Shown here: positions 8,394 through 23,506 of the stretch, piece by piece | How positions within the stretch are numbered: position 1 is the first letter of the stretch | Layout: every line of letters begins with the position of its first letter | DNA from: Staphylococcus epidermidis | GTDB taxonomy: Bacteria > Bacillota_I > Bacilli_A > RFN20 > CAG-826 | DNA length: 56,174 nucleotides | Assembly: GCA_945870555.1 (NCBI GenBank) | Contig: CAMBSI010000003.1 | Location: 1 to 56,174 of the forward strand | Direction of reading: 5' to 3' | Made by a program: the position numbers and the translations under genes | The notes under the pieces: generated by a model | What the model saw: the letters and a program-made list of their open reading frames with translations, nothing else | The model's database searches: none | Told to the model about the DNA's origin: nothing

Positions 8394-9222
8394 TCTAGAA
8401 GAAAAAGTTTGGGAAAAAGTTCGCTTAGCTCGCCACCCTAAACGGCCGACAGCTTCGATGGTCATTAAACAACTGTTTCCAGATTTTTTAGAACTTCATG
8501 GTGATCGTCAATTTGGTGATGATGCCTCTTTAATTGGAGGTCTTGCAACCTTTAACGGCATACCGATTACCGTGATTGCCCAAGAAAAAGGTTCTACAAC
8601 CGAAGAAAAAATTGCAAGAAACTTTGGGATGCCACATCCGGAAGGTTATCGCAAAGCGTTACGATTAATGAAGCAAGCTGAAAAATACCAACGACCCATT
8701 TTCTTGTTAATCGATACCCCAGGAGCTTATCCAGGGATTGGTGCAGAAGAACGAGGTCAGGCTCAAGCGATTGCCTTTAATTTATTTGAAATGATCGCTT
8801 TAAAAACCCCATTGATTGGTGTGGTTTTATCCGAGGGTGGTTCTGGTGGTGCCTTGGCGATTGGTGTGACCGATTCACTTTTCATGTTGGAAAATAGCAT
8901 TTATTCCATTATCTCTCCAGAAGGTTTTGCATCGATTCTTTTTAAAGACTCGACCAAAGCCAAATCGGCTGCCGCCTTGATGAAGTTAACGGCAGAAGAC
9001 CTATTATCTTTGGGCATTATTGATGGGATTATCCCAGAAGCCAAAGGTGGTTTCCAAGATGATGTTGCAATGACGTTACAAGCATTGAAAACCTCACTTC
9101 TAAAATCCTTAAAGCAATTAATGAAATTATCGTTAACTAATCTCTTGCAAAAACGGGAAGCAAAGTTCCGAAACATTGGCGTATTTGAAGATCAGAAAGT
9201 GGATAGCAAAGATGGAAAATAA
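8386..9222 (+). CDS. accA: Acetyl-CoA carboxylase carboxyltransferase alpha subunit
   Basis: LHGDR, FGMPHPEGYRKA, DTPGAYPG, EGGSGGAL, SPEG. Confidence 0.97.
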   Translation: MNNLEEKVWEKVRLARHPKRPTASMVIKQLFPDFLELHGDRQFGDDASLIGGLATFNGIPITVIAQEKGSTTEEKIARNFGMPHPEGYRKALRLMKQAEKYQRPIFLLIDTPGAYPGIGAEERGQAQAIAFNLFEMIALKTPLIGVVLSEGGSGGALAIGVTDSLFMLENSIYSIISPEGFASILFKDSTKAKSAAALMKLTAEDLLSLGIIDGIIPEAKGGFQDDVAMTLQALKTSLLKSLKQLMKLSLTNLLQKREAKFRNIGVFEDQKVDSKDGK

Positions 9223-10150
9223 ATTAACGGTCAAATTAATTGGAACTGGAAAATATGTTCCACCAGGTTTAATTACCAATGCAGACCTTGAAAAAATGGT
9301 TGATACCACGGATGAATGGATCGTATCCCATACCGGCATTAAAACTCGCCATAAAGTGGTCAACGAAACGACTGCAGACTTAGCTTATTTAGCAGCACTA
9401 AATGCCATTGAGAAGGCAAAATTTGATCGAGAAATGATTGATGCGATTATTGTTGCAACCATCACCCCAGATTTTGCGTCTCCAAGCATGGCGGCCGTTG
9501 TCCAAGCAAAACTTGGCTTAAATCATCGCGATATAACTTGCTTTGATATCAATGCTGCCTGTACAGGTTTTGTCTATGCGTTACAAGTGGCAACCGCTTT
9601 ATTAAACAGTCCAAATTATCGTCATATTCTCATCGTTGGTGCGGAAACGCTGACAAAAATTATGGATTACACCGATCGTAGCACCTGTATTCTTTTCGGT
9701 GATGGGGCAGGAGCGTTGCTCGTTGGTCGTGGTCAAAGTCATCAAACCGTTTCGTTTTATACCGCTTCTGAAGGTGACATGGAAGATGTCCTTTCGGTAA
9801 AGGAAGTTTTAAGAATGCAAGGGCAACGAGTGTTCAAATTTGCAATCAACGCGATTGAAAAATCAATTAATCGTTTATTGGAACTCGATGGAAGCCGCCT
9901 GGATATGGTGACAAAAATTATACCTCATCAAGCAAACTATCGTATCGTTGAAGGGGTTGCAGAATTAAAGAAAATTCCTCTCAATAAATTTTTCCTAAAT
10001 TTAGAACATTATGGCAATACATCTGCAGCATCGATTCCGATTGCCTTAGATGAGTTTCTTTCCATGAACCCACTTAAAAAAGGCGATAAATTAATGTTGG
10101 TGGGCTTTGGTGCTGGATTAACTTGGGGCGGAGCGCTTATCAATCTATGA
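9212..10150 (+). CDS. fabH: 3-oxoacyl-ACP synthase III
   Basis: Catalytic C/H/N in AACTGF, PHQAN, GNTSAAS; FGDGAGA; start moved to ATG 9212. Confidence 0.96.
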   Translation: MENKLTVKLIGTGKYVPPGLITNADLEKMVDTTDEWIVSHTGIKTRHKVVNETTADLAYLAALNAIEKAKFDREMIDAIIVATITPDFASPSMAAVVQAKLGLNHRDITCFDINAACTGFVYALQVATALLNSPNYRHILIVGAETLTKIMDYTDRSTCILFGDGAGALLVGRGQSHQTVSFYTASEGDMEDVLSVKEVLRMQGQRVFKFAINAIEKSINRLLELDGSRLDMVTKIIPHQANYRIVEGVAELKKIPLNKFFLNLEHYGNTSAASIPIALDEFLSMNPLKKGDKLMLVGFGAGLTWGGALINL

Positions 10151-11082
10151 AACGATATGCTATCTTGTTTGCAGGTCAAGGGGCCCAAGCGATTGGGATG
10201 GGTATACAAGCTTTAGCTGCAAGTCCTTATCTGACAAGTTATTTTGAATCGATTCAAAAGCATTTACATTTTGATTTAAAAGCAATCCTAACTGGAGAAA
10301 AACCCGGGTTAAACCAAACCGAGTTTACCCAACCTGCTCTTTTAGCAACTTCTTTACTATATGTTCAACAATTACAACATGAACTGCCGCTTCGTCCATC
10401 GTTCTATTTAGGATTCTCGCTTGGAGAATATACGGCGTTACACGCGAGTGGTCATTTAGATTTACCAAGCACATTAAATTTGATTCAAGTTCGGGCGAAT
10501 GCCATGGCAAAGGCTGGTCTAGAACAACCTGGATCGATGGCAGCGATTATCGGCATGAGCGCAGAGGATTTAAATCGCCTTTGTCTGCAAGTCAATCAAC
10601 CAAATCAAATCGTGATGATTGCAAATTATAATTGTCCTGGTCAATTGGTGATTTCTGGACATCAAGAAGCGGTCAAACAGGTGATGAACTTGGCAACCCA
10701 ACATGGCGCAAAACGCGCCATTGCATTGAATGTTTCTGGAGCCTTTCATTCGCCATTAATGAAACCAGCAGGTTCAGTATTGGCAACCGCATTACCAAAG
10801 TTTCGTTTTTTACCTGCCAAGACCCCAATGATTTTTAATTGGACGGGAAAACCCTTAGCTAACCTAAAGGATTTACCCAATCATTTGATTCAACAAGTCC
10901 AATCGTCAGTATTGTTCGAAAATTCGATTCGCTATGTGGCACAAGAAGGGATTCAAGACTTCCTTGAAATCGGACCAGGTAATGTCTTATCTGGTTTTGT
11001 TAAGAAAATTCTTCCAAGTGCAAACGTGGTTTCTTATAACGGTCTAAGTGACCTTAACTTAGTGAAGGAGTTCATCGCATGA
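10147..11082 (+). CDS. fabD: Malonyl-CoA:ACP transacylase
   Basis: FAGQGAQ, TQPA, GFSLGEY, ANYN, SGAFHS; ATGA overlap with the fabH stop gives start 10147. Confidence 0.96.
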   Translation: MKRYAILFAGQGAQAIGMGIQALAASPYLTSYFESIQKHLHFDLKAILTGEKPGLNQTEFTQPALLATSLLYVQQLQHELPLRPSFYLGFSLGEYTALHASGHLDLPSTLNLIQVRANAMAKAGLEQPGSMAAIIGMSAEDLNRLCLQVNQPNQIVMIANYNCPGQLVISGHQEAVKQVMNLATQHGAKRAIALNVSGAFHSPLMKPAGSVLATALPKFRFLPAKTPMIFNWTGKPLANLKDLPNHLIQQVQSSVLFENSIRYVAQEGIQDFLEIGPGNVLSGFVKKILPSANVVSYNGLSDLNLVKEFIA

Positions 11083-11825
11083 ATGACGTCAAAAAAGTTG
11101 CCATCATCACCGGTGGTGCAACCGGTATTGGTTTAGCAATTAGTCAGCAACTCGCAAATGAAGGTTATTGTGTGGTGGTCAATTACAATGCCTCAAAAGA
11201 TGCTGCTTTAGCGTTTGTTCAATCGGTTCAAGCCAAAGGTGGTCAAGCACTTGCCGTCCAAGCGAATATTAGTCAAGTCAAAGAAGCAGAACAATTGATT
11301 CAAACAACCTTACAAACCTTTAATCGTTTAGACGTGCTTGTCAACAATGCAGGGATTACCGATGACACGTTAATGTTGAGGATGACAGAAGAACAATTTG
11401 ATCGGGTGATTGACACAAACTTAAAGGGCGTTTGGGCGATGTGCAAGTTTGCCTTAAAACCTTTAATGCAAAGTGGCCAAGGCCGGATCATTAATATCGC
11501 ATCCGTTGCAGGCATGATGGGGAATGTTGGCCAAGCCAATTATGCAGCTGCAAAAGCAGGTGTGATTGGCTTAACCAAAACTTTAGCAAGAGAAATGGCT
11601 TCTAGAAATCTAACTGCAAACGTGGTTGCCCCAGGATTTATTGAAACCAAGATGACCGCAGGTTTATCTCCACAAATTAAAGAAGCAGCATTAAATATGA
11701 TTCCCTTAAAACGATTTGGACAACCCGTCGATATTGCAAACATCGTTAGTTTTTTAGCCTCAAGTAAGGCACAATATATAACAGGTCAAACGTTTGTTGT
11801 CGATGGCGGGATGACCATGTACTAA
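11079..11825 (+). CDS. fabG: 3-oxoacyl-ACP reductase
   Basis: SDR motifs TGGATGIG, NNAG, NYAAAK, VDGG within the fab cluster. Confidence 0.96.
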   Translation: MNDVKKVAIITGGATGIGLAISQQLANEGYCVVVNYNASKDAALAFVQSVQAKGGQALAVQANISQVKEAEQLIQTTLQTFNRLDVLVNNAGITDDTLMLRMTEEQFDRVIDTNLKGVWAMCKFALKPLMQSGQGRIINIASVAGMMGNVGQANYAAAKAGVIGLTKTLAREMASRNLTANVVAPGFIETKMTAGLSPQIKEAALNMIPLKRFGQPVDIANIVSFLASSKAQYITGQTFVVDGGMTMY

Positions 11826-11838
11826 AGGGAGCATATCC

Positions 11839-13068
11839 ATGAAAAAAAGAGTTGTCATTACTGGGCTAGGAGCGGTTACCCCAATCGGTAACGATGTCAC
11901 CACGATGTGGAAAAATATGCTAAGCGGGATGAATGGTATCGACCGTATCACCTTATTTGACCCATCAAAAAGTAAAGTGAAAATTGCCGCAGAAATTAAA
12001 GGTTTAAATCCTAGTAAATATCTTGATGAACGAAGTGCAAGTAAACTTGACCGCGTCATTGTCCTTGGCATTTTAGCCGCAAGTGAAGCCTATGATGATG
12101 CCAAACTTAAACCAGAATCGGTTGATCCTTATCGCTTTGGAACATTTGTGACATCTGGCATTGGTGGACTAAACTCGATTTGGGCAGAATCACAAGTCGC
12201 AATTAGCCGTGGTGTTGATCGTGTATCGCCACATTTTATTACAAACGCCATCATCAATTTAATTGGTGGAAATATATCCATGCGGTTTAAAGCAAAAGGA
12301 CCAAATTTACCGGTGGTAACGGCTTGTTCTGCAAGTACAAATTCAATTGGAGAAGCTTTCCGATACATTCGCGATGGCTACCTAGATGTAGCCTTTGCCG
12401 GTGGTTCTGAATCCTCAATCAATGATTTAGGAATCGCCGGATTTGCCGTCATGCGTGCCCTTCATATGGGAGAAAACCCAGCTGCGGCAAGTATGCCTTT
12501 TGATAAGAAACGCTCTGGATTTGTCATGGGTGAAGGTGCCGGCGTCTTAATCCTTGAATCGTATGAACATGCCGTTGCAAGAAAAGCAAAAATTTATGCG
12601 GAGCTTGTTGGATATGGTTCAACGTCCGATGCATTCCATGTCACTGCTCCAGATGAAACGGCAGAAGGCATTACCAAATGTATGCAACTTGCAATCCAAG
12701 ATGCAAACATTACCCCTCAAGCGATTGATTACATAAACGCCCATGGAACTTCGACGCCATTAAATGACCGCATTGAAACCTTGGGTATCAAGAAAGTTTT
12801 TGGCGAACACGCATATCGTTTAAATGTATCAAGTACCAAAGGGATGACCGGTCACATGTTAGGTGCAACGGGTGCGGTTGAATCGATCGCTTGTATTCTT
12901 TCGTTGGTGAATCAAATTGTGCCTCCAACCATCACCACGACCGAATTAAGTCCTGAATGCGATTTAAACTATACCCTTGGCAAAGCGGTGAAGCGGTCTG
13001 TTCAATATGCTTTGAATATCAATTTAGGTTTTGGTGGTCAAAACGCTGCCCTTATTTTTAAGAGGTAA
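11839..13068 (+). CDS. fabF: 3-oxoacyl-ACP synthase II
   Basis: TACSAS, AHGTST, GHMLGA catalytic motifs; GFGGQN. Confidence 0.97.
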   Translation: MKKRVVITGLGAVTPIGNDVTTMWKNMLSGMNGIDRITLFDPSKSKVKIAAEIKGLNPSKYLDERSASKLDRVIVLGILAASEAYDDAKLKPESVDPYRFGTFVTSGIGGLNSIWAESQVAISRGVDRVSPHFITNAIINLIGGNISMRFKAKGPNLPVVTACSASTNSIGEAFRYIRDGYLDVAFAGGSESSINDLGIAGFAVMRALHMGENPAAASMPFDKKRSGFVMGEGAGVLILESYEHAVARKAKIYAELVGYGSTSDAFHVTAPDETAEGITKCMQLAIQDANITPQAIDYINAHGTSTPLNDRIETLGIKKVFGEHAYRLNVSSTKGMTGHMLGATGAVESIACILSLVNQIVPPTITTTELSPECDLNYTLGKAVKRSVQYALNINLGFGGQNAALIFKR

Positions 13069-13076
13069 TCTAATCC

Positions 13077-13499
13077 ATGTTTGATTTAAAAAAAATAAAA
13101 ACGATTATTCCTCATCGTGAACCATTCATTTTAATTGATCGGGTCATGCAAAATGAACCATTAATACATAGTGTTGCTGAAAAAGATATTCGTCTAACTG
13201 AATTTTGGGTTCCAGGCCATTTTCCTAATAATCCAGTTTTTCCGGGCGTTCTCATCGTTGAAGCTTTTGCTCAAACTGGGGCAATTTGTATTTTAACTGC
13301 GCCACAATACATTGGAAAAATCGGTTATTTCTCTGCAATCCAAGAAGTTAAATTTAAACGCAAAGTGGTTCCCGGAGACACGCTTCGCCTTGAAGTCAAA
13401 TTAACCAGTTCAAAAGTTGGTTTTTTCTTTTTTGATGGTGAAGCATTTGTCGATGAACAATTGGTATGTGTTGCTAAATTCTCAGTTGCTGTAGGTTAG
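13077..13499 (+). CDS. fabZ: 3-hydroxyacyl-ACP dehydratase
   Basis: PHREPF, GHFP, PGVLIVEAFAQ. Confidence 0.96.
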   Translation: MFDLKKIKTIIPHREPFILIDRVMQNEPLIHSVAEKDIRLTEFWVPGHFPNNPVFPGVLIVEAFAQTGAICILTAPQYIGKIGYFSAIQEVKFKRKVVPGDTLRLEVKLTSSKVGFFFFDGEAFVDEQLVCVAKFSVAVG

Positions 13500-13501
13500 T
13501 C

Positions 13502-14017
13502 ATGACGCTACTCACTTTTGATACGATTGATTCCACCAACAATTATGTAAAAGAACATGCCAATCAACTGGCACACTTTACGGTGGTTCGTGCCCGTTAT
13601 CAAACTGCTGGCCGTGGCCAATTTAATCGCCAATGGCAAAGTAATCCTAATGAAAATTTGTTGGTGTCTTTTTTTCTTAAAAAATTCAAAAAGCATACAA
13701 CAGTTCAAACCATTGAACAAGTCCTCCTTCAATCTTGCCACCATTTTTTTAAACACTTCGGTTTAACCACGGTCCATAAATTACCAAATGATCTCATGGT
13801 TCAAGGCAAAAAAATTGCAGGGATGTTAATTGAAACCAAACAAACGGATGGAAAATTAGATCATGTGATTCTTGGGATTGGTCTGAACATCAATCAACAA
13901 TCTTTTGATAATTTATCAACCGCCACATCCATCGCATTAATTTCCAAGAAAATTCATCCAATCGATGAAGTATTTGAAATATTTTTGACTGCATCAAAAC
14001 CCTTATTATCGCTATAA
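13502..14017 (+). CDS. birA: Biotin-protein ligase, catalytic domain only
   Basis: IDSTN, QTAGRGQ, KLPND, KIAGML, GIGLN; no N-terminal HTH, only 171 aa. Confidence 0.9.
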   Translation: MTLLTFDTIDSTNNYVKEHANQLAHFTVVRARYQTAGRGQFNRQWQSNPNENLLVSFFLKKFKKHTTVQTIEQVLLQSCHHFFKHFGLTTVHKLPNDLMVQGKKIAGMLIETKQTDGKLDHVILGIGLNINQQSFDNLSTATSIALISKKIHPIDEVFEIFLTASKPLLSL

Positions 14018-14020
14018 ACG

Positions 14021-14029
14021 TGATAAAAT
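14021..14029 (+). promoter_or_regulatory. Possible extended -10 promoter for gnd-zwf-cyclase
   Basis: TGaTAAAAT in the birA-gnd gap, followed by an AAGGAG SD; no good -35. Confidence 0.4.
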
Positions 14030-14052
14030 AAGATAGTTAAAGGAGATTTTTT

Positions 14053-15081
14053 ATGTTACATGTTGGCATTATCGGTTTAGGTAGAATGGGTGAAAATATG
14101 TCCCGTCGATTGCTTGAAAAAGGTTTTACAACTTATGGTTATCGGACCTCAATCGATAAATTAAAAGAACAAGAAAAATTAGGTTATATCTCGAAAGCAT
14201 GTCTTGATTTACCCAGTTTAGTCAAGGCAGTCAAAGCAAAACAAAAACGAGGTATTTTCCAATTGGTTGTCCCTGCACAAACGGTTGAAGAAACGATCCA
14301 AACGCTCATCCCTTTACTTGCAAAAGGTGACATCATCATTGATCACGGTAATTCAAATTTTAAGGATTCTAGACGTCGGGCCATCACCTTGAAGGCCAAA
14401 GGCATCGATTACTTAGACTGTGGTACATCCGGTGGCGTTTATGGTTTAGAACGTGGTTATTGCTTAATGATTGGCGGAGAATTAGAGGCGGTTAATTTCT
14501 GTTCCCCTATTTTTGAAACGCTATCCCCTCATGTTGAAGGCGCACCTCGCTTATTACCAAATCTAGCCATCAGTCCAGCTGAACATGGTTGGTTACATTG
14601 TGGTCCAGCCGGTGCTGGTCATTTTGTGAAAATGGTTCATAACGGCATTGAATACGGCATCATGCAAGCCTATGCAGAAGGTTTCAATATTTTAAAACAA
14701 GCAAACTTAGGAAGCAATTTTATTAATAAAGGGGATGCAGAAGTTGCCCCAATGTCGGATCCTGAAAACTATCAATACGCGATTAATGTTCCTGAAGTTG
14801 CAGAATTATGGCGCCGTGGTTCCGTCATTGGTTCATGGTTATTAGACTTAACCGCAGAAGTCTTAAAAAAAGATGGAGCATTAAATCAATTTGTTGGTGG
14901 TGTCTCTGACTCTGGCGAAGGTCGCTGGACGGTTAATGCTGCTGTTGATTTAGGGGTTCCAGCTCCGGTCTTATCCACCGCCCTTTTTGCCCGATTCGAT
15001 AGCCGTGGTCAAGCAGATTTTTCCCGACGTATTCTCAATGGGATGCGATTTATGTTCGGGGGACATCATGTCCGAAAATAA
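14053..15081 (+). CDS. gnd: 6-phosphogluconate dehydrogenase (decarboxylating), short-chain class
   Basis: GLGRMG, DHGNS, DCGTSGG, GHFVKMVHNGIEYG, DSGEGRWT, FGGH. Confidence 0.96.
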   Translation: MLHVGIIGLGRMGENMSRRLLEKGFTTYGYRTSIDKLKEQEKLGYISKACLDLPSLVKAVKAKQKRGIFQLVVPAQTVEETIQTLIPLLAKGDIIIDHGNSNFKDSRRRAITLKAKGIDYLDCGTSGGVYGLERGYCLMIGGELEAVNFCSPIFETLSPHVEGAPRLLPNLAISPAEHGWLHCGPAGAGHFVKMVHNGIEYGIMQAYAEGFNILKQANLGSNFINKGDAEVAPMSDPENYQYAINVPEVAELWRRGSVIGSWLLDLTAEVLKKDGALNQFVGGVSDSGEGRWTVNAAVDLGVPAPVLSTALFARFDSRGQADFSRRILNGMRFMFGGHHVRK

Positions 15082-16351
15082 CGTTCTCGTTATTTTTGGA
15101 TCGACTGGCGATTTAACCTATCAAAAACTCTTACCTGCCTTAGCAAGACTGAACGAACTTTCACCGAAACTTCTTAAAAAAATTGTCTTGATAGGACGAC
15201 AAGTCGAAACCCTTGAAGCCTATTTTCAATATGGCCTCGAGCATGGTTTAGACATGTCAGCAGTTCAACCGATGACTTCAAAACTCCAATACGTTTATTT
15301 ACAAGCATCTGAAACCAATGCTTATGGCATCCTTGAACCAATCTTAAAGCCATATCAAGGTCGATTTTTTTATTTGGCAACCCCACCAAGCATGTTTCAC
15401 CTCATCACCAATGCGTTAAGCATGAAAGGTTTGATTAAAAAAGGCAATCCACAGCATCGCCTTGCTTATGAAAAACCGTTTGGTGAAAATGGTAGCGCCG
15501 CTCAAGTGTTGAATGACATGCTTCACGAAACGATTGAAGAACCACAGCTTTATCGGGTTGATCATTATTTAGCAAAGCCTTTGATTCAACAGTTACTAAA
15601 AATCCGGATGCAATGGGCAACCGTTGGCATGGAAGATCTTTGGAATCAACAACATATCAAAACGATTTCCATCCATGCATATGAATCGATTGGCATTTTG
15701 TCACGAGGCAAATTTTATGATGTTACCGGTGCCTTAAAAGACATGGTTCAAAGTCACTTGCTCGAGACCCTTGCATTATTAATGATGGATTTGCCAAAAC
15801 GAATCGATGATATTAAAACCATTCAAGACCATAAAATTAAGTTTATTCAATCCATTCAACCGATGTTAAATCAAATCATTCTTGGTCAATATAAGGGTTA
15901 TTTACAAGAACTGAATGTGAATCCTTCATCCATCACCGAAACCTTTGCCCATGTGCCAATGACGTCTTCAAGTGCTCGTTGGAAAGGAACACGTTTAACG
16001 ATTACCACGGGCAAAAAATTAGAAGAAAAGCGAACTGAAATCATCGTTGAGTTTCAAAAAGGTCATTCCTTAGTTTTCAATATTTCTCCAACCATTGGGG
16101 TTCAATTTGAAGAGGGTTTTCTTGAAACACTGATGCCACCTTTAAAGCAACATATGCAGCAACTTCATCGCCATCCTTTTGCCCGTGAAGATGCCTACGT
16201 GACGATCTTTAAGGATTGGATCCAAGGAAATCAAACGTTATTCCCTTCCGCTGGAGAAATTGAAGCAACCTGGAACATCATTGATGCGATTAAACAAACG
16301 CCAAACTTACCAAAACCATATTCAAAACTAAAAGATTTGCTTAGAAAGTAG
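15068..16351 (+). CDS. zwf: Glucose-6-phosphate 1-dehydrogenase (divergent, 427 aa)
   Basis: FGSTGDL..KLLP, EKPFG, RVDHYLAK, RGKFYD, DMVQSH, GQY, TGKKL; start moved to ATG 15068 overlapping the gnd end. Confidence 0.9.
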   Translation: MSENNVLVIFGSTGDLTYQKLLPALARLNELSPKLLKKIVLIGRQVETLEAYFQYGLEHGLDMSAVQPMTSKLQYVYLQASETNAYGILEPILKPYQGRFFYLATPPSMFHLITNALSMKGLIKKGNPQHRLAYEKPFGENGSAAQVLNDMLHETIEEPQLYRVDHYLAKPLIQQLLKIRMQWATVGMEDLWNQQHIKTISIHAYESIGILSRGKFYDVTGALKDMVQSHLLETLALLMMDLPKRIDDIKTIQDHKIKFIQSIQPMLNQIILGQYKGYLQELNVNPSSITETFAHVPMTSSSARWKGTRLTITTGKKLEEKRTEIIVEFQKGHSLVFNISPTIGVQFEEGFLETLMPPLKQHMQQLHRHPFAREDAYVTIFKDWIQGNQTLFPSAGEIEATWNIIDAIKQTPNLPKPYSKLKDLLRK

Positions 16352-16362
16352 AGGATAAACCA

Positions 16363-16980
16363 ATGGCAACTTATGACATTTCTATGCCAATCCAATCTGG
16401 GATGAGTGTGTACAAAAACAAACAAGAAAAACAGCCAATTTTTACTCAACAAAATCGCTTAGCAGAAGGTGGAAGTTTTGAAACCACCATCACGATGAAT
16501 GTGCATACAGGCACCCATTTAGATTTCCCTTTACACATGGTGGCAAATGGTCAAAACTCAAGTCAATTTGATATTCATCGACTGCTTCGGGAAGTTCGCG
16601 TGATTGATTGCGGGCAGCTTGATGTCATTGATGAAACCTTCCTACAATCACAACATCTTAAAGCGGGTGAATTTATCTTATTGAAAACGAAAAGTAGTCA
16701 ACATGAAACCTTTCTATTTGATTTTCCTTATCTTTCGAAAAATGGGGCAAGTTTTTGCGTGAAAAAGAAAATTGCTGGTGTTGGGATTGATGCCCTTGGC
16801 ATTGAACGCGATCAACCGGGTCACGAAACCCACCAGTTGTTAATGAAAGCAAATATGCTCATTCTTGAAGGTTTACGATTGGCTAAAGTCCCTGCTGGTT
16901 TTTATCAGATGATTGCCTTACCTTTATCGATACCAAACTTGGATGCTTTACCGGTACGCGCAATCTTGTTATCAAAGTAA
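16363..16980 (+). CDS. Cyclase-family (kynurenine formamidase-like) metal-dependent hydrolase
   Basis: HTGTHLDFPLH family signature, GIDALG, ILEGL. Confidence 0.9.
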   Translation: MATYDISMPIQSGMSVYKNKQEKQPIFTQQNRLAEGGSFETTITMNVHTGTHLDFPLHMVANGQNSSQFDIHRLLREVRVIDCGQLDVIDETFLQSQHLKAGEFILLKTKSSQHETFLFDFPYLSKNGASFCVKKKIAGVGIDALGIERDQPGHETHQLLMKANMLILEGLRLAKVPAGFYQMIALPLSIPNLDALPVRAILLSK

Positions 16981-16989
16981 AGATTCATC

Positions 16990-17931
16990 ATGAAAGATCT
17001 TAAAAAGATTAATATTCTTTTGATGGGAACCCCTGATTTGGCGCGTGATGTTTTTCAAGCGATTGCAGAACAAGGTTATCAAATCGTGGGTGTTGTTTGC
17101 CAACCGGATACCGTCACCGGTCGAGATAAAATTGCGACAAAGCCACCAACCAAAATGTGGGCAGAATCAAAAGGAATACCCGTTTTTCAACCCGAAAAAA
17201 TTAGACTTGATCACGCCTTTTTAAACACACTTGATATTGACTACATCTTGACCCTTGCTTATGGGCAAATTGTTCCCCAAGTGGTGCTTGATAAACCACG
17301 TTTCGGAGCATTTAATTTCCATGGGAGTATCTTGCCAGCATACCGTGGCGCATCCCCGATTCGCTTTGCTTTAATTCATCAAGAAAAAATCACAGGGATG
17401 ACCCTGATGAAAATGGTCCTTGCCATGGATGCAGGCCCAATTTATGCGATCAAACGTATGCCGATTCAACCCGATGACAATTACACAAGTTTATTACAAA
17501 GATTTTCTTCCTTCACGTCTCAGTTTGCAACTCAAATTCTTCCGCGCTTAATCAATGGAGAATTATCACCGATTCCGCAACTTGAATCAGCAGCAACGTT
17601 TGCACCGATGATCAAAAAAGAAGATGAGCATTTACGTTTAGATTTACCTATTATTCAATTGATTGGTTGGGTTCGTGGATTATCGGAAACCCCTGGTGGT
17701 TATCTCCTCTTGGAAGAAAAGAAACTCAAAATTTTACAAGTCTCGATCTTGAATCAAACTGAAAATTATCCTGTCGGAACGCTGATCAAGGTTGATCATC
17801 TCGGTGTTCACTTACAAGTAAAAGGTGGGGTGATGTCGCTCGATCAAGTTCAACTTGAAGGCAAAGGCAAAATGCTTGGAAAGATCTTTGGAAATGGCCA
17901 CAAGCATCTTCAAGGTGTTGTCTTAAGGTAA
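16990..17931 (+). CDS. fmt: Methionyl-tRNA formyltransferase
   Basis: MGTP, VVCQPD, AYGQI, NFHGSILPAYRGASPI, MDAG, VQLEGK. Confidence 0.96.
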   Translation: MKDLKKINILLMGTPDLARDVFQAIAEQGYQIVGVVCQPDTVTGRDKIATKPPTKMWAESKGIPVFQPEKIRLDHAFLNTLDIDYILTLAYGQIVPQVVLDKPRFGAFNFHGSILPAYRGASPIRFALIHQEKITGMTLMKMVLAMDAGPIYAIKRMPIQPDDNYTSLLQRFSSFTSQFATQILPRLINGELSPIPQLESAATFAPMIKKEDEHLRLDLPIIQLIGWVRGLSETPGGYLLLEEKKLKILQVSILNQTENYPVGTLIKVDHLGVHLQVKGGVMSLDQVQLEGKGKMLGKIFGNGHKHLQGVVLR

Positions 17932-17936
17932 TCCGG

Positions 17937-20258
17937 GTGGACGTCTATCTTTCCGTTCATGATTTAGTGGACTTCGTTTTAAGAACCGGTGACTTAGATG
18001 GTCGAATTTTTAATCGTTCCACGATGCAAACTGGCACAGAGATGCATCAACGTTACCAAAAACAGACCATCATTCCAGGTTATCAACGTGAAGTCTTATT
18101 ACAAGGTGATTTCCAATATCAAGACATCACGTTTCATGTCACCGGAAGAGCAGATGGTTTGTTTGAACGCGATGGTAAAGTCATCATCGAAGAAATTAAA
18201 ACCACGATTGCCGACTTGAAAACGTTTCATGAGCAACATGAAACGTGGCATATGATGCAAGGACTACTTTACGGATACATGTATGCAAGCATTCACCAAT
18301 TGCCATCCATGGATGTCAAACTCATATATCTTCATCAAATCAACGAAGAGCGCATGGATAAAAGCTATTCCTTTTCAATGGAAGAAGCAAAAAAAGATAT
18401 TCAAGCGGTGATTGATGAATATGGAGAATTTTATCAAATCATTCAAGCGCAACAACTGGCCGTAAAAAAAGCGTTACCGCAGCTCCAATTTCCCTTTCAA
18501 ACCTTTCGCCAAGGGCAACGAGATTTAGCCAAGTATGTGTATGGCATTAGCCAAAAAGGTGGGCGGTTATTTGTTGAAGCACCCACCGGGATTGGCAAAA
18601 CCATGTCGACCTTATTTCCGATGATCAAAGGTTTATACACCCATCATGAAAAAGTCTTTTATTTTACGGCTAAAAATTCGGGAAAAATAGCAGCGATTGA
18701 AGCTCTAGAAAAACTAAGAGCCCAAGGCGTTCCGATTCGATATGTGGTCATCACCGCAAAAGATAAAATCAGTTTTTGTCCAAAAGGAAAAATCAATCCG
18801 GATGATTGCCTATATGCCCGTGGGTATTTTGACAAAGTAAAAGATGTGATTATCGACGGCCTTAAAAATTATCAAGCGTTTCAACCTTCCACGATTGAAG
18901 CCTTAGCAGAAAAACATCAAGTGGAACCTTTTGAATTAAGTTTAGATTTATCGCTCTATGTGGATGTTGTGATTGCCGATTACAATTATCTATTTGATCC
19001 AAATGCTTATCTTCGCCGTTTCTTTGAGGATGTGCAGCATCCATACGCCGTATTGATTGATGAGGCCCATAATCTTGTTGAACGTGGACGCGATATGTAT
19101 TCAGCTACGTTGACAGACCAAATCTTTCAGCAACTTGATAAAGGGACTAAAAAAGGTAGTTCAAAACCATTTCGGCAACGTGTCGTTCGCTTAACCAAAC
19201 AATGGCAAACGTTGATGGAACCAATTCAAACTCCGCAACGGATTCAAGTCGATGAGACATTTATCAATCAGTTGGATAAATTTTTGACGGAAGCACAAGT
19301 TGAAATGCGAACCAAACGAAAGTCTTTATCGGACGAAGCGATGGATAGTTACTTTAAAATCTTACGGTTTTTTCGACTTCGCGAATTAACCGGTGACCAT
19401 TATCGCGATTGGGCGAATCAAGAAGGGTCTGATCATCAACTCCATTTTGAATGCTTAGATGCATCGCGATACCTGAAAGCGATGACAGAAAAAATTCATA
19501 GTGTTGTCTTTTTCTCTGCGACGCTAGCGCCACTCAATTACTACTTACCGATGCTTGGGGCAACCGACAAAGATGTGCAATTTATCTTACCGTCACCATT
19601 TCCTCGTGAACACTTTAAAGTCCTCATGGCAAGTAAGATATCGACCACCCTCAAAAACAGAAATAAAACGTATTTAGAGATTGCACTTTATATTGAAAAA
19701 TTAGTGGAAAATAAATTAGGAAACTATCTTATCTTCTTTCCTTCGTACCAGTACCTAGATGATGTGAAGCAACACTTACGTTTTTCTAAAGAGGCACTCG
19801 TTTTAACCCAAACCAAAGAAATGACGCTGCAAGATCGTGAAGGTTTTTTGAATCAATTTACGCATATGCCAAAACAAACGACAGTCGGCCTAGCGGTTTT
19901 GGGTGGGGTTTTCTCCGAAGGTATTGATTTGGTCGGTGATCGTCTGATTGGGGTTGGTATTGTTAGTGTGGGATTACCTCAGTTATCTTTTGCCCGTGAC
20001 CTGATGGTGGAATACCAAACGTCAAAAGGTCATCAAGGATTTGATTTTGCTTATGTCTATCCTGCCATCAATAAAGTCCTTCAGGCGATGGGTCGTGTGA
20101 TTCGATCAGAAAAAGACCGCGGGGTCGCTTTATTGTTAGATGAACGATTTTTAAGAGAAGAATATGGTGCAATTCAACAACGATATTCACAATATGAAGT
20201 AGTCCATTCACCCGATGAGGTTGAAGAGGCATTGGCCGATTTCTTTCGTAAAGACTAG
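17937..20258 (+). CDS. DinG/Rad3 (XPD)-family helicase with N-terminal PD-(D/E)xK nuclease domain
   Basis: N-terminus GTEMHQ..GRADGL..IEEIKT; helicase motifs APTGIGKT, DYNY.FDP, DEAHN, FSATL, FFPSY, EGID, QAMGRVIRS. Confidence 0.9.
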   Translation: MDVYLSVHDLVDFVLRTGDLDGRIFNRSTMQTGTEMHQRYQKQTIIPGYQREVLLQGDFQYQDITFHVTGRADGLFERDGKVIIEEIKTTIADLKTFHEQHETWHMMQGLLYGYMYASIHQLPSMDVKLIYLHQINEERMDKSYSFSMEEAKKDIQAVIDEYGEFYQIIQAQQLAVKKALPQLQFPFQTFRQGQRDLAKYVYGISQKGGRLFVEAPTGIGKTMSTLFPMIKGLYTHHEKVFYFTAKNSGKIAAIEALEKLRAQGVPIRYVVITAKDKISFCPKGKINPDDCLYARGYFDKVKDVIIDGLKNYQAFQPSTIEALAEKHQVEPFELSLDLSLYVDVVIADYNYLFDPNAYLRRFFEDVQHPYAVLIDEAHNLVERGRDMYSATLTDQIFQQLDKGTKKGSSKPFRQRVVRLTKQWQTLMEPIQTPQRIQVDETFINQLDKFLTEAQVEMRTKRKSLSDEAMDSYFKILRFFRLRELTGDHYRDWANQEGSDHQLHFECLDASRYLKAMTEKIHSVVFFSATLAPLNYYLPMLGATDKDVQFILPSPFPREHFKVLMASKISTTLKNRNKTYLEIALYIEKLVENKLGNYLIFFPSYQYLDDVKQHLRFSKEALVLTQTKEMTLQDREGFLNQFTHMPKQTTVGLAVLGGVFSEGIDLVGDRLIGVGIVSVGLPQLSFARDLMVEYQTSKGHQGFDFAYVYPAINKVLQAMGRVIRSEKDRGVALLLDERFLREEYGAIQQRYSQYEVVHSPDEVEEALADFFRKD

Positions 20259-20300
20259 TAGCATTCAGGGGGAATTATCGGTATGATAATAACGTGATTT

Positions 20301-22106
20301 ATGACATACGACATTAAAAAAATACGTAATTTCTCCATCATTGCGCATATTGACCATGGCAAATCGACATTGGCCGATCGAATTTTGGAATTAACCGGTG
20401 CTGTGAGCAAACGAGAAATGAAAGAACAAATGCTAGATTCCATGGATCTCGAACGTGAACGTGGCATTACCATCAAGTTAACGACTGTAACTTTGCAATA
20501 TAAGTCTCGTGATGGCCAAGAATACACCTTTAATCTCATCGACACCCCAGGGCATGTCGACTTTACCTATGAAGTGTCGCGGTCATTAGCGGCATGTGAA
20601 GGGGCGTTATTAGTCGTGGATGCTTCTCAAGGGGTTGAAGCTCAAACCTTAGCGAATGTGTATTTGGCGGTAGACAACAATCTATGGATCATTCCTTTAA
20701 TTAACAAGGTTGATTTGCCTCAATCGGATCCAGCAAAAGTCAAACTTGAAATTAAAAGACGAATTGGTTTAGATGCAGCGGATGCTTTAGAAATTTCTGG
20801 TAAAACTGGAAAAAATGTCTTAGAAGTGTTGGAAAAAATTATCGTTGAAATTCCCCCACCAGAAGGTGATTACAATGCGCCTTTAAAAGCGCTTATTTTT
20901 GATTCTTTTTATGATGCTTATCGTGGTGTGGTTGCCTTAATTCGTATCAAAGAAGGACATGTCAAAGTCGGAGATTATATTCTCTTGATGGCGTCAGGTC
21001 ATGTCTATCAAGTTACGGAATTGGGCATTTTTCGTCCTCATCAAGAAAAAAAGGATGAATTAGCATCCGGTGAAGTCGGTTATTTGGCGGCGCAAATCAA
21101 AGAGATCAAAGATGTGCGTTCTGGCGAAACCATTACCCTAAGAGACCATGCAGCCACCGAGGCATTACCAGGATATCGTGATTTAAACCCAATGGTTTTC
21201 TGCGGTTTGTTTCCGGTTGATGGTAAAGAGTACCGAGACCTCAAGGACGCATTAGGAAAATTAGCATTAAGCGATGCGAGTTTAAAATTTGAACCAGAAA
21301 CCTCACAAGCTTTAGGCTTTGGCTATCGTTGTGGTTTCTTAGGTTTACTCCATATGGATGTCATCCAAGAACGTTTAGAACGAGAATACAACTTGAATTT
21401 AATCTTAACTGCACCCAGTGTGGTTTACCATGTTCATCTCCACAACGGAGAGATGATCTTGTTAGATAATCCAAACAAATTACCGCAGCTCACGACGATT
21501 AAAGAAATCAGTGAACCTTATGTAAAAGCGACCATTACAACACCAAAAGAATACGTTGGACCATTAATGGAACTTTGCCAAAATCGCCGGGGTATTTATA
21601 CCGAACTTGAATATGTCGATGAAACCCGGATGACCTTACGTTATGAAATCCCTTTAGCAGAAATTGTGTATAACTTTTTTGATAAACTCAAAAGCTTATC
21701 AAAAGGTTATGCTTCTTTTGATTATGTCTTGTCAGATTATAAAGTTGGAAACCTCGCAAAAATGGACATCCTCCTCAATGCCGAAATCATCGATGCGCTT
21801 TCGACGATTGTCCATAAACCATCAGCCTATAATCGGGGAAACTTTATTGTTGAAAAATTGAAAACGATTATCCCACGGCAACAATTTGAAATACCGATTC
21901 AGGCAGCCATCAATGGAAAAGTGATTGCCCGGACGGATATCAAAGCCGTTCGTAAAGATGTTTTAGCCAAGTGTTATGGTGGGGATATTTCCCGTAAACG
22001 TAAATTACTCGATAAGCAAAAAGAAGGCAAGAAGCGAATGAAAAACATCGGTTCAGTTGAAGTACCTCAAGAAGCTTTCATGACGGTTTTATCGATCGAC
22101 GATTGA
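20301..22106 (+). CDS. lepA: Elongation factor 4
   Basis: [41 protein letters not shown]. Confidence 0.99.
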
Positions 22107-22116
22107 ACTTGTTTTA

Positions 22117-22138
22117 ATCTACTAAATATCTACTACTT
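22117..22138 (+). promoter_or_regulatory. Site A of the 11-bp-period CTACTA direct repeat; overlaps the -35 position of an extended -10 promoter (TGgTATATT, 22151-22159)
   Basis: ATCTACTAAAT|ATCTACTACTT; near-identical elements at 37922-37954 and 54786-54807. Confidence 0.7.
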
Positions 22139-22174
22139 TTTCAAATTTTATGGTATATTTTAACAAGTTTAATT

Positions 22175-23506
22175 ATGGCAATTAATGATTTAGCCATCCG
22201 CTTTACGGATGAACAATATGCAACCAAACAAGATGTCGCAAAGACCCTTGGAACCGCGGTTGTCGATGCATTGTGGGGAACCATTCTTCAGTATCGTGCT
22301 ACGTTTGCGCGGATCTTACCGCTACAAGCAATGGATAAGCAACCCTTGCAAATCGTATTGACCCCTAGTTTGTTAGAGAAAGTCATGGCCTTTGATCGAA
22401 AAATGTCAAAAGCCGTCAGTCTCTTCAATTATCATCAAATTCAAAACAAAATTGCTTCCCCGTTTTATCCATTATTGTTACCAATTCTTGCAAGTGTAGG
22501 TAAGCAATATGGCGCGTCGACCGCCGAACGAAATTTAATGTATATTCTCGAAGGTAAAGCGGTCGAAAGAAAGGCCGAATTATCATCCGTTAATCAGTAT
22601 TTTCGTGGGATTGATTTGATTGCGGCAAGACGCCAAACCAAACTCGACGAGGACTTAATGGGTGACTTGCTTATGTTACTCAATCAAACACAAGAGTTAA
22701 CGATGTTTTATCGAGAAAAAGAGTTAACCAACCGGCCCAAAAGTTTAGTGGCCAGGGTTTACGAAGCTGCACCGTATCCTTTAATTGAACCGATGATGAA
22801 GACGTTATTGCAAACCGTCAACCAAATGACCTTGTCACCATTGGTGATTGCCACGATAGCTTTATATTATCTTGATTACATCAAACCATTTGAAACCTTT
22901 AATGATGAAATGAGTTTTCTATTATTTAAAAACATCTTAATCCATAGTGATTATGAGGCCGTTGCTTGCTACCTGAATATCGAACAATTTATGGACAATG
23001 AAGCTTACGAAAAGTGTATGTTAGAGGTTCAACGCACACGCGACATCACTTATTTATTGGACTTCATGTTGCCTTTCATGTTAACGAGCGTGGAACAAAT
23101 TCTTGATCGATTGGTTGGTTTACAAAAACAGACCTTAATTGCAGAACAAAAACAACCTCAACCTACCCTTGCTTCGTTTCCAGTCCCGGCTGCATTACCA
23201 AAAGAAACCACGGCGTTTTCTGCAAGTGAGTCCACCATTGGTGAGGTAGAATCGAATCGCTTGCAACAACATTTGATTGAAACCCACCCGAGTATGAAAA
23301 AAGGTGAAGCGTTCTTCTATGCCCGGCACCATACGGTTGGAAAATATTACACGCTTTCACAATACAAGCAACAACTGTCCTGTGCTTATGAAACGGCACG
23401 AACTTCAATGGAACATTTGGTTCAATTAGGTTATTATCGTAAAGAGAAGTATAAAAATAAATACGTTTATACACCTGTTGACTTAAAAGGAGCAACCCAT
23501 GATTAA
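22175..23506 (+). CDS. Fic-like protein with degenerate catalytic motif and C-terminal winged-helix-like domain
   Basis: IKPFETFNDEMSFLL occupies the position of the Fic signature HPFxDGNGRxxR, preceded by the typical helical 'P.LVIATIALYYLDY' segment; C-terminus YTLSQYKQQLSCAYETARTSMEHLVQLGYYRKEKYKNKYVY has an HTH-plus-wing pattern. Confidence 0.6.
   Translation: MAINDLAIRFTDEQYATKQDVAKTLGTAVVDALWGTILQYRATFARILPLQAMDKQPLQIVLTPSLLEKVMAFDRKMSKAVSLFNYHQIQNKIASPFYPLLLPILASVGKQYGASTAERNLMYILEGKAVERKAELSSVNQYFRGIDLIAARRQTKLDEDLMGDLLMLLNQTQELTMFYREKELTNRPKSLVARVYEAAPYPLIEPMMKTLLQTVNQMTLSPLVIATIALYYLDYIKPFETFNDEMSFLLFKNILIHSDYEAVACYLNIEQFMDNEAYEKCMLEVQRTRDITYLLDFMLPFMLTSVEQILDRLVGLQKQTLIAEQKQPQPTLASFPVPAALPKETTAFSASESTIGEVESNRLQQHLIETHPSMKKGEAFFYARHHTVGKYYTLSQYKQQLSCAYETARTSMEHLVQLGYYRKEKYKNKYVYTPVDLKGATHD

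Follow-up and report, generated by a model that had tools for sequence, protein, structure and literature searches.

The pentose phosphate pathway (PPP) has an oxidative branch that runs through three enzymes, glucose-6-phosphate dehydrogenase (Zwf, or G6PD), 6-phosphogluconolactonase (Pgl, or 6PGL) and 6-phosphogluconate dehydrogenase (Gnd, or 6PGD). The lactonase is known from two families, the DevB/Pgl type (TIGR01198), which has the NagB fold, and the YbhE/YkgB type (PF10282), a seven-bladed beta-propeller that to our knowledge is not metal-dependent. Many sequenced bacteria seem to be without this second enzyme, and modellers assume a spontaneous step in its place; Geobacillus, for example, is reported to be without any 6PGL gene, and its models take the step as spontaneous (PMC9678985; bioRxiv 10.1101/2021.02.01.429138). 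Here we examine a stretch of 56,174 nucleotides (the window hereafter; contig CAMBSI010000003.1 of assembly GCA_945870555.1, named Staphylococcus epidermidis and carrying the GTDB lineage Bacillota_I, Bacilli_A, RFN20, CAG-826), in which gnd and zwf are followed by a gene for a 205-aa metallohydrolase of the cyclase/kynurenine formamidase (KynB) fold, PF04199 (16363–16980, + strand). A preliminary description, made from the sequence alone, had suggested that this gene may encode a non-orthologous 6-phosphogluconolactonase. The proposal is supported by conserved linkage to zwf, by complementarity with the YbhE type, by the lack of a canonical pgl and by fusions to Gnd, and on this sequence evidence we consider that the cyclase is probably a metal-dependent 6-phosphogluconolactonase (EC 3.1.1.31), unrelated to both known Pgl families.

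The candidate would carry out the same reaction as the YbhE/YkgB type and occupies the same operon neighbourhood, yet it has an unrelated fold and no sequence similarity to it; the DevB type, for which the reaction would again be the same, likewise has an unrelated fold. No homology to DevB (TIGR01198/PF01182) or YbhE (PF10282) was found in the window cyclase, which matches PF04199 alone. Within its own fold, solved structures of the same subfamily exist from Bacillus smithii (8HMO, with Mn; phmmer E 2.4e-50) and Geobacillus stearothermophilus (1R61/3KRV; 1.1e-47), and these have the motifs VYKNKPEKQP and GID(A/S)LGIER in common with the window cyclase. They are titled “metal-dependent hydrolase” and “predicted metal-dependent hydrolase”, respectively, and have no functional annotation; we found no papers citing 8HMO. 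Two segments of 1R61 are identical to zwf-adjacent Anoxybacillus proteins at 25 of 27 and 30 of 38 residues, the linkage to zwf being shown for Anoxybacillaceae/Bacillaceae relatives of 8HMO and 1R61, not for those exact strains.

KynB (EC 3.5.1.9; 4CO9/4CZ1, 4COG and 4COB; TIGR03035) shares both the fold and the binuclear-metal ligand set, but binds Zn where the orthologue 8HMO has Mn, and cleaves an amide where an ester (lactone) bond is proposed for the window cyclase. The window subfamily further differs from KynB in an N-terminal loop with an insertion and in additional Lys, Arg, His and Gln positions that are invariant. Precedent for the chemistry comes from the same Pfam family, which holds the trans-dienelactone hydrolase of Pseudomonas reinekei MT1 and the metal-dependent carboxylesterase MGS0169, both catalyzing metal-dependent lactone/carboxylic-ester hydrolysis (PMC5341072). 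In these two enzymes the motif is modified to Gln-x3-Gln-x-Asp-x3-His, and their substrates are unphosphorylated aromatic-pathway or model esters, whereas the window subfamily retains the classical His-x3-His-x-Asp-x3-His. A phosphotriesterase (8F9X) is also included in PF04199.

Linkage to zwf, exchange with YbhE-type lactonases and fusions to Gnd

The preliminary description had seen neither a pgl nor a kynA in the window and had allowed that a canonical pgl might lie elsewhere in the genome. We found none: neither the DevB type (PF01182, TIGR01198) nor the YbhE type (PF10282) gave a match anywhere in the 82%-complete assembly (924 kb in 59 contigs), and tryptophan dioxygenase (PF03301) gave none either, kynU lying outside the search. 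Because this genome is incomplete, the search was extended to the five congeners of highest completeness (86–93%), and PF10282 and TIGR01198 were absent from all of them. Both rpe and tkt are present in the genome of the window, so the product of Gnd has an onward route.

Within the genus of the window, each of the 13 loci fetched has the order zwf-cyclase-fmt-helicase, and gnd is seen upstream of zwf in 10 of these, two others (L005 and L009) being too short to show it. In the remaining congener (G004, locus L017) the block is without gnd and reads lipB-zwf-cyclase-fmt. Taken alone, such order within a genus could reflect simple descent. At the level of the order, zwf occurs in just 2 of 151 sampled genomes, both of which have the cyclase, and in the second, from another genus (G164, L016), the cyclase again lies directly after zwf. 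In the window, the gnd-zwf-cyclase block sits between a lipoate-ligase-family gene and fmt (13502–17931); since zwf is so rare in the order and always accompanied by the cyclase, the block looks like an insertion gained as a unit.

For a wider view, a profile of 31 subfamily members was scanned against one genome per species of bacteria and archaea, giving 80 loci, the neighbours of which were scored by tblastn with the window’s own Zwf and Gnd. The loci come from Bacilli (Anoxybacillus, Fictibacillus, Rossellomorea, Paenibacillus, Alicyclobacillus and Thermoactinomyces), from Clostridia, from Acholeplasmataceae, Izemoplasmatales and Haloplasmataceae, and from two oddly labelled bins. Across Bacillota, zwf adjoins the cyclase in 70 of the 76 assessable loci (the four others of the 80 have less than 350 nt upstream), and in 67 loci it is on the same strand and within 400 nt. 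Two loci have gnd adjoining instead of zwf, arranged as gnd-cyclase and as cyclase-glucokinase-gnd, leaving four true exceptions to zwf/gnd adjacency among the 80. The pair persists where cyclase identity has fallen to 42–50% and Zwf identity to about 30%, among otherwise differing neighbours. Chance falls far short of explaining the adjacency, and the linkage to zwf first noticed in the window is conserved phylum-wide.

Two further features of these loci deserve mention. The oddly labelled bins, one a record labelled Nanoarchaeota (L090, the cyclase-glucokinase-gnd locus) and the other labelled Treponema (L073), contain subfamily members at 45–49% identity, which may reflect mis-binning or lateral transfer. 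In Halalkalibacter nanhaiisediminis (L092) and in genome G433 (L156, L162) there are two copies of zwf, and two of gnd, with the cyclase following just one of the zwf copies.

Complementarity with the YbhE type was assessed in a sample of 300 genomes from the class of the window, with a strong subfamily match taken as one above 250 bits. The cyclase was found in 46 genomes and zwf in 66; both were present in 44, always adjacent. A full-length YbhE-type Pgl (PF10282) occurs in all 22 zwf-bearing genomes that are without the cyclase, compared with 1 of the 43 that have it (the window’s own genome left out), which is the anti-correlation with pgl that the preliminary description had proposed to look for. 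In the genomes without the cyclase the ybhE gene is often 2–3 kb from zwf, and five of them (G316, G381, G405, G417 and G465) have ybhE-gnd-zwf clusters, placing the YbhE type in the same neighbourhood. The DevB type was above the TIGR01198 cut-off in none of the 68 genomes of the class sample that were searched, matches below it falling on NagB-like genes to which PF01182 also responds. In a second, independent set of 50 cyclase carriers drawn from the species-wide scan, the DevB type was again found in none and the YbhE type in 6, mostly large genomes; altogether, no DevB-type Pgl over the cut-off was detected in the 118 Bacillota genomes examined. We had also tried PF01182 as a Pgl marker and dropped it: it matches 39 of 50 genomes, and the same places score at most 90 bits with TIGR01198 (cut-off 124), so these matches are most likely NagB-type deaminases.

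Because related genomes are not independent, a tree of 67 Zwf sequences was built to handle their kinship. On this tree the cyclase label needs at least six changes, at least five of them forced by well-supported branches. Independent contrasts number four on well-supported branches and six when all branches are used, and wherever YbhE differs in these contrasts it does so in the opposite direction to the cyclase, never in the same one. Switches between cyclase and YbhE occur inside three taxonomic families (f11, f16 and f19).

An exhaustive profile-free search (51 representative clusters, E ≤1e-30) added a second kind of association. Two proteins, P0183 (515 aa; L168:1274–2821) and P0212 (410 aa, ending at the contig end), are the only solid Gnd-cyclase fusions that came up, and at the P0183 locus the end of zwf coincides with the start of the fusion gene. 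The two are just 38% identical, their alignment is continuous across the junction, and each of their contigs was seen in two samples; for these reasons the architecture is real and conserved, not an accident of assembly. In a report on PPP fusions, G6PD is joined with 6PGL or with 6PGD, and the joining of consecutive enzymes recurs (PMC3148214). The fusions found here are unlike those G6PD-6PGL and G6PD-6PGD proteins in that the partner is Gnd and the putative lactonase domain is PF04199, and a lactonase joined to the enzyme that would consume its product fits, by analogy, the pathway’s fusion habit.

Other composite proteins also turned up. In P0272 (L169:721–1614) and P0123 (L170:3064–4044), the last ~45 residues of Zwf are in frame with the cyclase domain; the remaining Zwf at L169 lies in another frame, with a frameshift near 721–748, and upstream at L170 there is just a truncated 141-aa N-terminal fragment of Gnd. 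As both loci are disrupted upstream, these proteins may be decayed or mis-assembled Zwf-cyclase fusions and we treat them as hints, weak as evidence. Four proteins (P0270, P0276, P0281 and P0280) have PF04199 fused to GNAT acetyltransferase or HAD-hydrolase domains and probably represent different subfamilies with other substrates. The 3182-aa P0121, which reaches E 1.4e-55 to the query through 21 short stretches and contains no Pfam cyclase domain, is probably an artefact produced in the search by repeats or by composition.

The cyclase protein and its predicted active site

The protein matches PF04199 at 77.8 bits (E 1.3e-21; gathering cut-off 23.1) over profile positions 1–141 of 142. This is its sole Pfam match and agrees with its earlier description as a cyclase/KynB-family metallohydrolase. 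In NCBIfam it matches only TIGR03035, the arylformamidase equivalog, with 118.8 bits where the cut-off is 223.05, and its relatives in JGI and UniRef are named arylformamidase, kynurenine formamidase or cyclase family protein. The AlphaFold2 model has a mean predicted local distance difference test (pLDDT) score of 95.6. In Foldseek comparisons, this model superimposes on 8HMO with a template modelling (TM) score of 0.96 and 46% identity, and on 1R61/3KRV with TM 0.89–0.91 and 42% identity; the corresponding values for KynB structures are 0.86–0.91 and 27–30%, and isatin hydrolases give TM 0.82–0.85.

The metal-binding/catalytic motif, H48-T-G-T-H52-L-D54-F-P-L-H58, can be read directly off the sequence (16504–16536, + strand). 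In the alignment to KynB, H48, H52, D54 and H58 are the counterparts of His50, His54, Asp56 and His60, and within a second active-site segment (G141-I-D-A-L-G-I-E148-R149-D-Q151-P-G-H154-E-T-H157 ... E169; 16783–16869, + strand) the KynB ligands His161 and Glu173 have H157 and E169 as their aligned counterparts. None of these six KynB-type ligand and catalytic residues varies among 121 distinct zwf-adjacent homologues. Judged by sequence and model, the cyclase is therefore a member of the fold with its predicted catalytic residues intact, in a subfamily distinct from KynB.

Several residues of the subfamily are without a KynB counterpart. K18, K23, K108, S112, E148, R149, Q151 and H154 are invariant or nearly so among the 121 homologues, K23 being kept in all of them and K18 in 116. 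Two of these residues belong to a subfamily-specific N-terminal loop, V16-Y17-K18-N-K-Q-E-K23-Q-P25 (16408–16437, + strand), which was delimited by alignment to 4COG and in which Q21-E22-K23 sit opposite a three-residue gap in KynB. K18 and K23 flank the position of Y17, which aligns with the substrate-binding Trp of KynB; this residue, Trp20, lines the hydrophobic substrate pocket, and Phe or Tyr stands there in about 18% of KynBs (PMC4243253). R149 is three residues past the position of KynB Ser149, and H154 is three ahead of the ligand H157. A phosphorylated sugar as substrate would call for a conserved cationic cluster of this kind beside the aligned active-site positions.

Proposed reaction and competing explanations

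In the proposed pathway, one tightly packed string of genes would supply the cyclase as well as Gnd and Zwf. The dehydrogenase Zwf would convert glucose-6-phosphate to 6-phosphoglucono-delta-lactone, the cyclase would open the lactone ring to give 6-phosphogluconate, and Gnd would then decarboxylate this product. Which substrate and metal are used, and what the subfamily-specific residues do, we infer largely by analogy. Since the ligand set and the fold are shared with KynB, a metal-hydroxide mechanism like that of KynB is likely. On this analogy, H48, H52 and D54, together with D54, H157 and E169, would coordinate one divalent cation or two; H58 would activate a hydroxide bound to the metal for attack on the C1 carbonyl and would next protonate the leaving ring oxygen. 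For binding of the 6-phosphate and of the sugar’s hydroxyls, the subfamily would use K18, K23, K108, R149, Q151, H154 and S112, where KynB has an aromatic pocket. Extending the assignment from the window to its relatives, we think it likely that the zwf-linked PF04199 subfamily constitutes a third class of Pgl and is the main Pgl of many Bacillota, including Acholeplasma- and Izemoplasma-like lineages, Clostridia, Anoxybacillaceae (Geobacillus among them), Alicyclobacillus and Thermoactinomycetes.

Several points weigh against the assignment as a 6-phosphogluconolactonase. Spontaneous hydrolysis of the lactone occurs, so that an enzyme for this step is not strictly needed, and published work deems the lack of one tolerable. 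In the literature searched, we found no enzyme assay of any subfamily member. The missing pgl of the window’s genome is judged from an assembly that is itself incomplete, and zwf is missing nearby or from the genome in G327, G470, L020/L021, L048 and L057. Seven genomes have the cyclase together with a YbhE-type Pgl. A sign test on the four well-supported pairs gives p = 0.125, and as four pairs cannot reach significance, the reciprocal switches are a consistent pattern and not statistical proof. Lastly, it is by sequence alignment to KynB, not from coordinates, that we place the subfamily-specific residues in the pocket.

Some of these same observations would suit a lactonase or esterase of the oxidative PPP acting on a related substrate, such as 6-phosphogluconate gamma-lactone (as metabolite repair), unphosphorylated glucono-lactone, or adducts of the reactive lactone. 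Linkage to zwf and gnd fits such an enzyme equally; in one genome (G327, L085) the cyclase sits with gnd and there is no zwf, in another (G470, L167) the cyclase lies beside a sugar transporter, and in the seven genomes that keep both the cyclase and a YbhE-type Pgl the two could have different roles. The distribution in the class sample (22 of 22 compared with 1 of 43), however, is what would be expected of two proteins doing the same job, not of a side job, and the conserved basic residues would suit a phosphorylated substrate. We regard a related substrate as unlikely, while giving it more weight than any other alternative to 6-phosphogluconolactonase.

Two explanations that deny the cyclase a catalytic part in the pathway are both quite improbable. 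It could be a non-catalytic or regulatory partner of Zwf comparable to OpcA, whose gene comes after zwf in both cyanobacteria and actinobacteria, and the strict placement of the cyclase in the slot immediately downstream of zwf is in keeping with this. Its metal-binding and catalytic residues are invariant across the 121 homologues, which argues for an enzyme rather than a regulatory partner, and such a role would leave unexplained both the complementarity with YbhE and the fusion to Gnd instead of Zwf. Alternatively, an unrelated hydrolase might have become fixed beside an ancestral zwf and have spread passively by descent and transfer: kin genomes inherit their gene order, and the rarity of zwf in the window’s order (both of its carriers having the cyclase) indicates that the block probably moved as a unit. 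Passive spread is hard to square with a pair that is kept across Bacilli, Clostridia and mollicute-like lineages at the low identities given above while other neighbours vary, and it predicts neither reciprocal replacement by YbhE inside three families nor the Gnd fusions.

Still less probable is the function implied by the database names, namely that the cyclase is a kynurenine formamidase deformylating N-formylkynurenine in tryptophan breakdown. KynB shares its fold and metal ligands, and TIGR03035 is its best NCBIfam match, but the score is far under the equivalog cut-off and identity to solved KynBs is well short of that to 8HMO and 1R61. The genes around it are zwf and gnd rather than kynA or kynU, and PF03301 is absent from the window’s genome; of the 80 carriers overall, 68 are without it, among them every one of the 47 in the class sample. 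Finally, the position of the gene 9 nt ahead of fmt, in the slot of def in a def-fmt operon, together with deformylation being the best-known activity of the family, could suggest an fmt-linked N-formyl hydrolase; we rejected a replacement of def, since the genome has an ordinary peptide deformylase gene on a different contig and fmt adjacency is limited to 4 of 84 scanned loci (L017, L018, L019 and L022), all with the window’s gene order, the zwf-cyclase locus of the second genus (L016, G164) having no fmt adjacency while adjacency to zwf is phylum-wide.

Gene order in the window and consequences of the proposed assignment

The cyclase lies within a co-directional string comprising fabF, fabZ, the lipoate/biotin-ligase-family gene, gnd, zwf, cyclase, fmt, a DinG-like helicase gene and lepA, all junctions near the cyclase being short. 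The zwf gene (PF00479 and PF02781; 15068–16351, + strand) ends in a TAG stop at 16349–16351, directly behind which an AGGA resembling a Shine-Dalgarno sequence (16352–16355, + strand) stands 7 nt ahead of the cyclase ATG at 16363; the gap of 11 nt and the separate AGGA agree with the preliminary description. Downstream, the cyclase stop (16978–16980) is separated by 9 nt from the fmt ATG at 16990. A scan of positions 9000–23000 gave promoter- and terminator-like sites in numbers no higher than those of shuffled sequence, and none between zwf, cyclase and fmt. The longest zwf open reading frame begins at a TTG at 14987, and the likely start is the ATG at 15068, ten codons ahead of GSTGDL, which would give a 14-nt overlap with the gnd stop.

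Zwf in the genus of the window is very divergent: it scores 272.7 bits with TIGR00871 (cut-off 400.6), shares at most 38% identity with any other Zwf in the sample and has a branch of 3.08 changes per column, which no other on the Zwf tree exceeds. Its cofactor and catalytic motifs are retained, with GSTGDL, EKPFG and a variant of the catalytic motif, RVDHYLAK. The Zwf of G164, from the other zwf-bearing genus of the order, is likewise on a long branch. The gnd gene (14053–15081, + strand) encodes a short-chain 6-phosphogluconate dehydrogenase of 342 aa with PF03446 and PF00393 domains, scoring above the cut-offs of both NF007161 (389.7 bits) and TIGR00872 (344.1 bits). This protein is about 40 residues longer than the NCBIfam profile of 302 positions and matches PF00393 in two stretches; the extra length and the split match suggest that it carries an insertion.

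The preliminary description had called the proposed function a new activity for the family. That would hold for the substrate alone, 6-phosphoglucono-delta-lactone, and not for the chemistry, because PF04199 already has an esterase and an enzyme that hydrolyses a lactone (PMC5341072). What would be novel is a third form, analogous to the other two, of an activity already known, within a fold that is known as well; in the literature searched, we found no paper that proposes or tests a Pgl role for the subfamily. If the assignment is true, it would close the 6PGL gap for a large part of Bacillota, including the Geobacillus models that have been patched with a spontaneous reaction. It would also correct a widespread mis-annotation as “arylformamidase” or “kynurenine formamidase”, which falsely implies tryptophan catabolism, and would provide a function for three orphan structures, 8HMO, 1R61 and 3KRV. 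A sugar-phosphate lactonase would thereby join the catalytic range of the cyclase fold.

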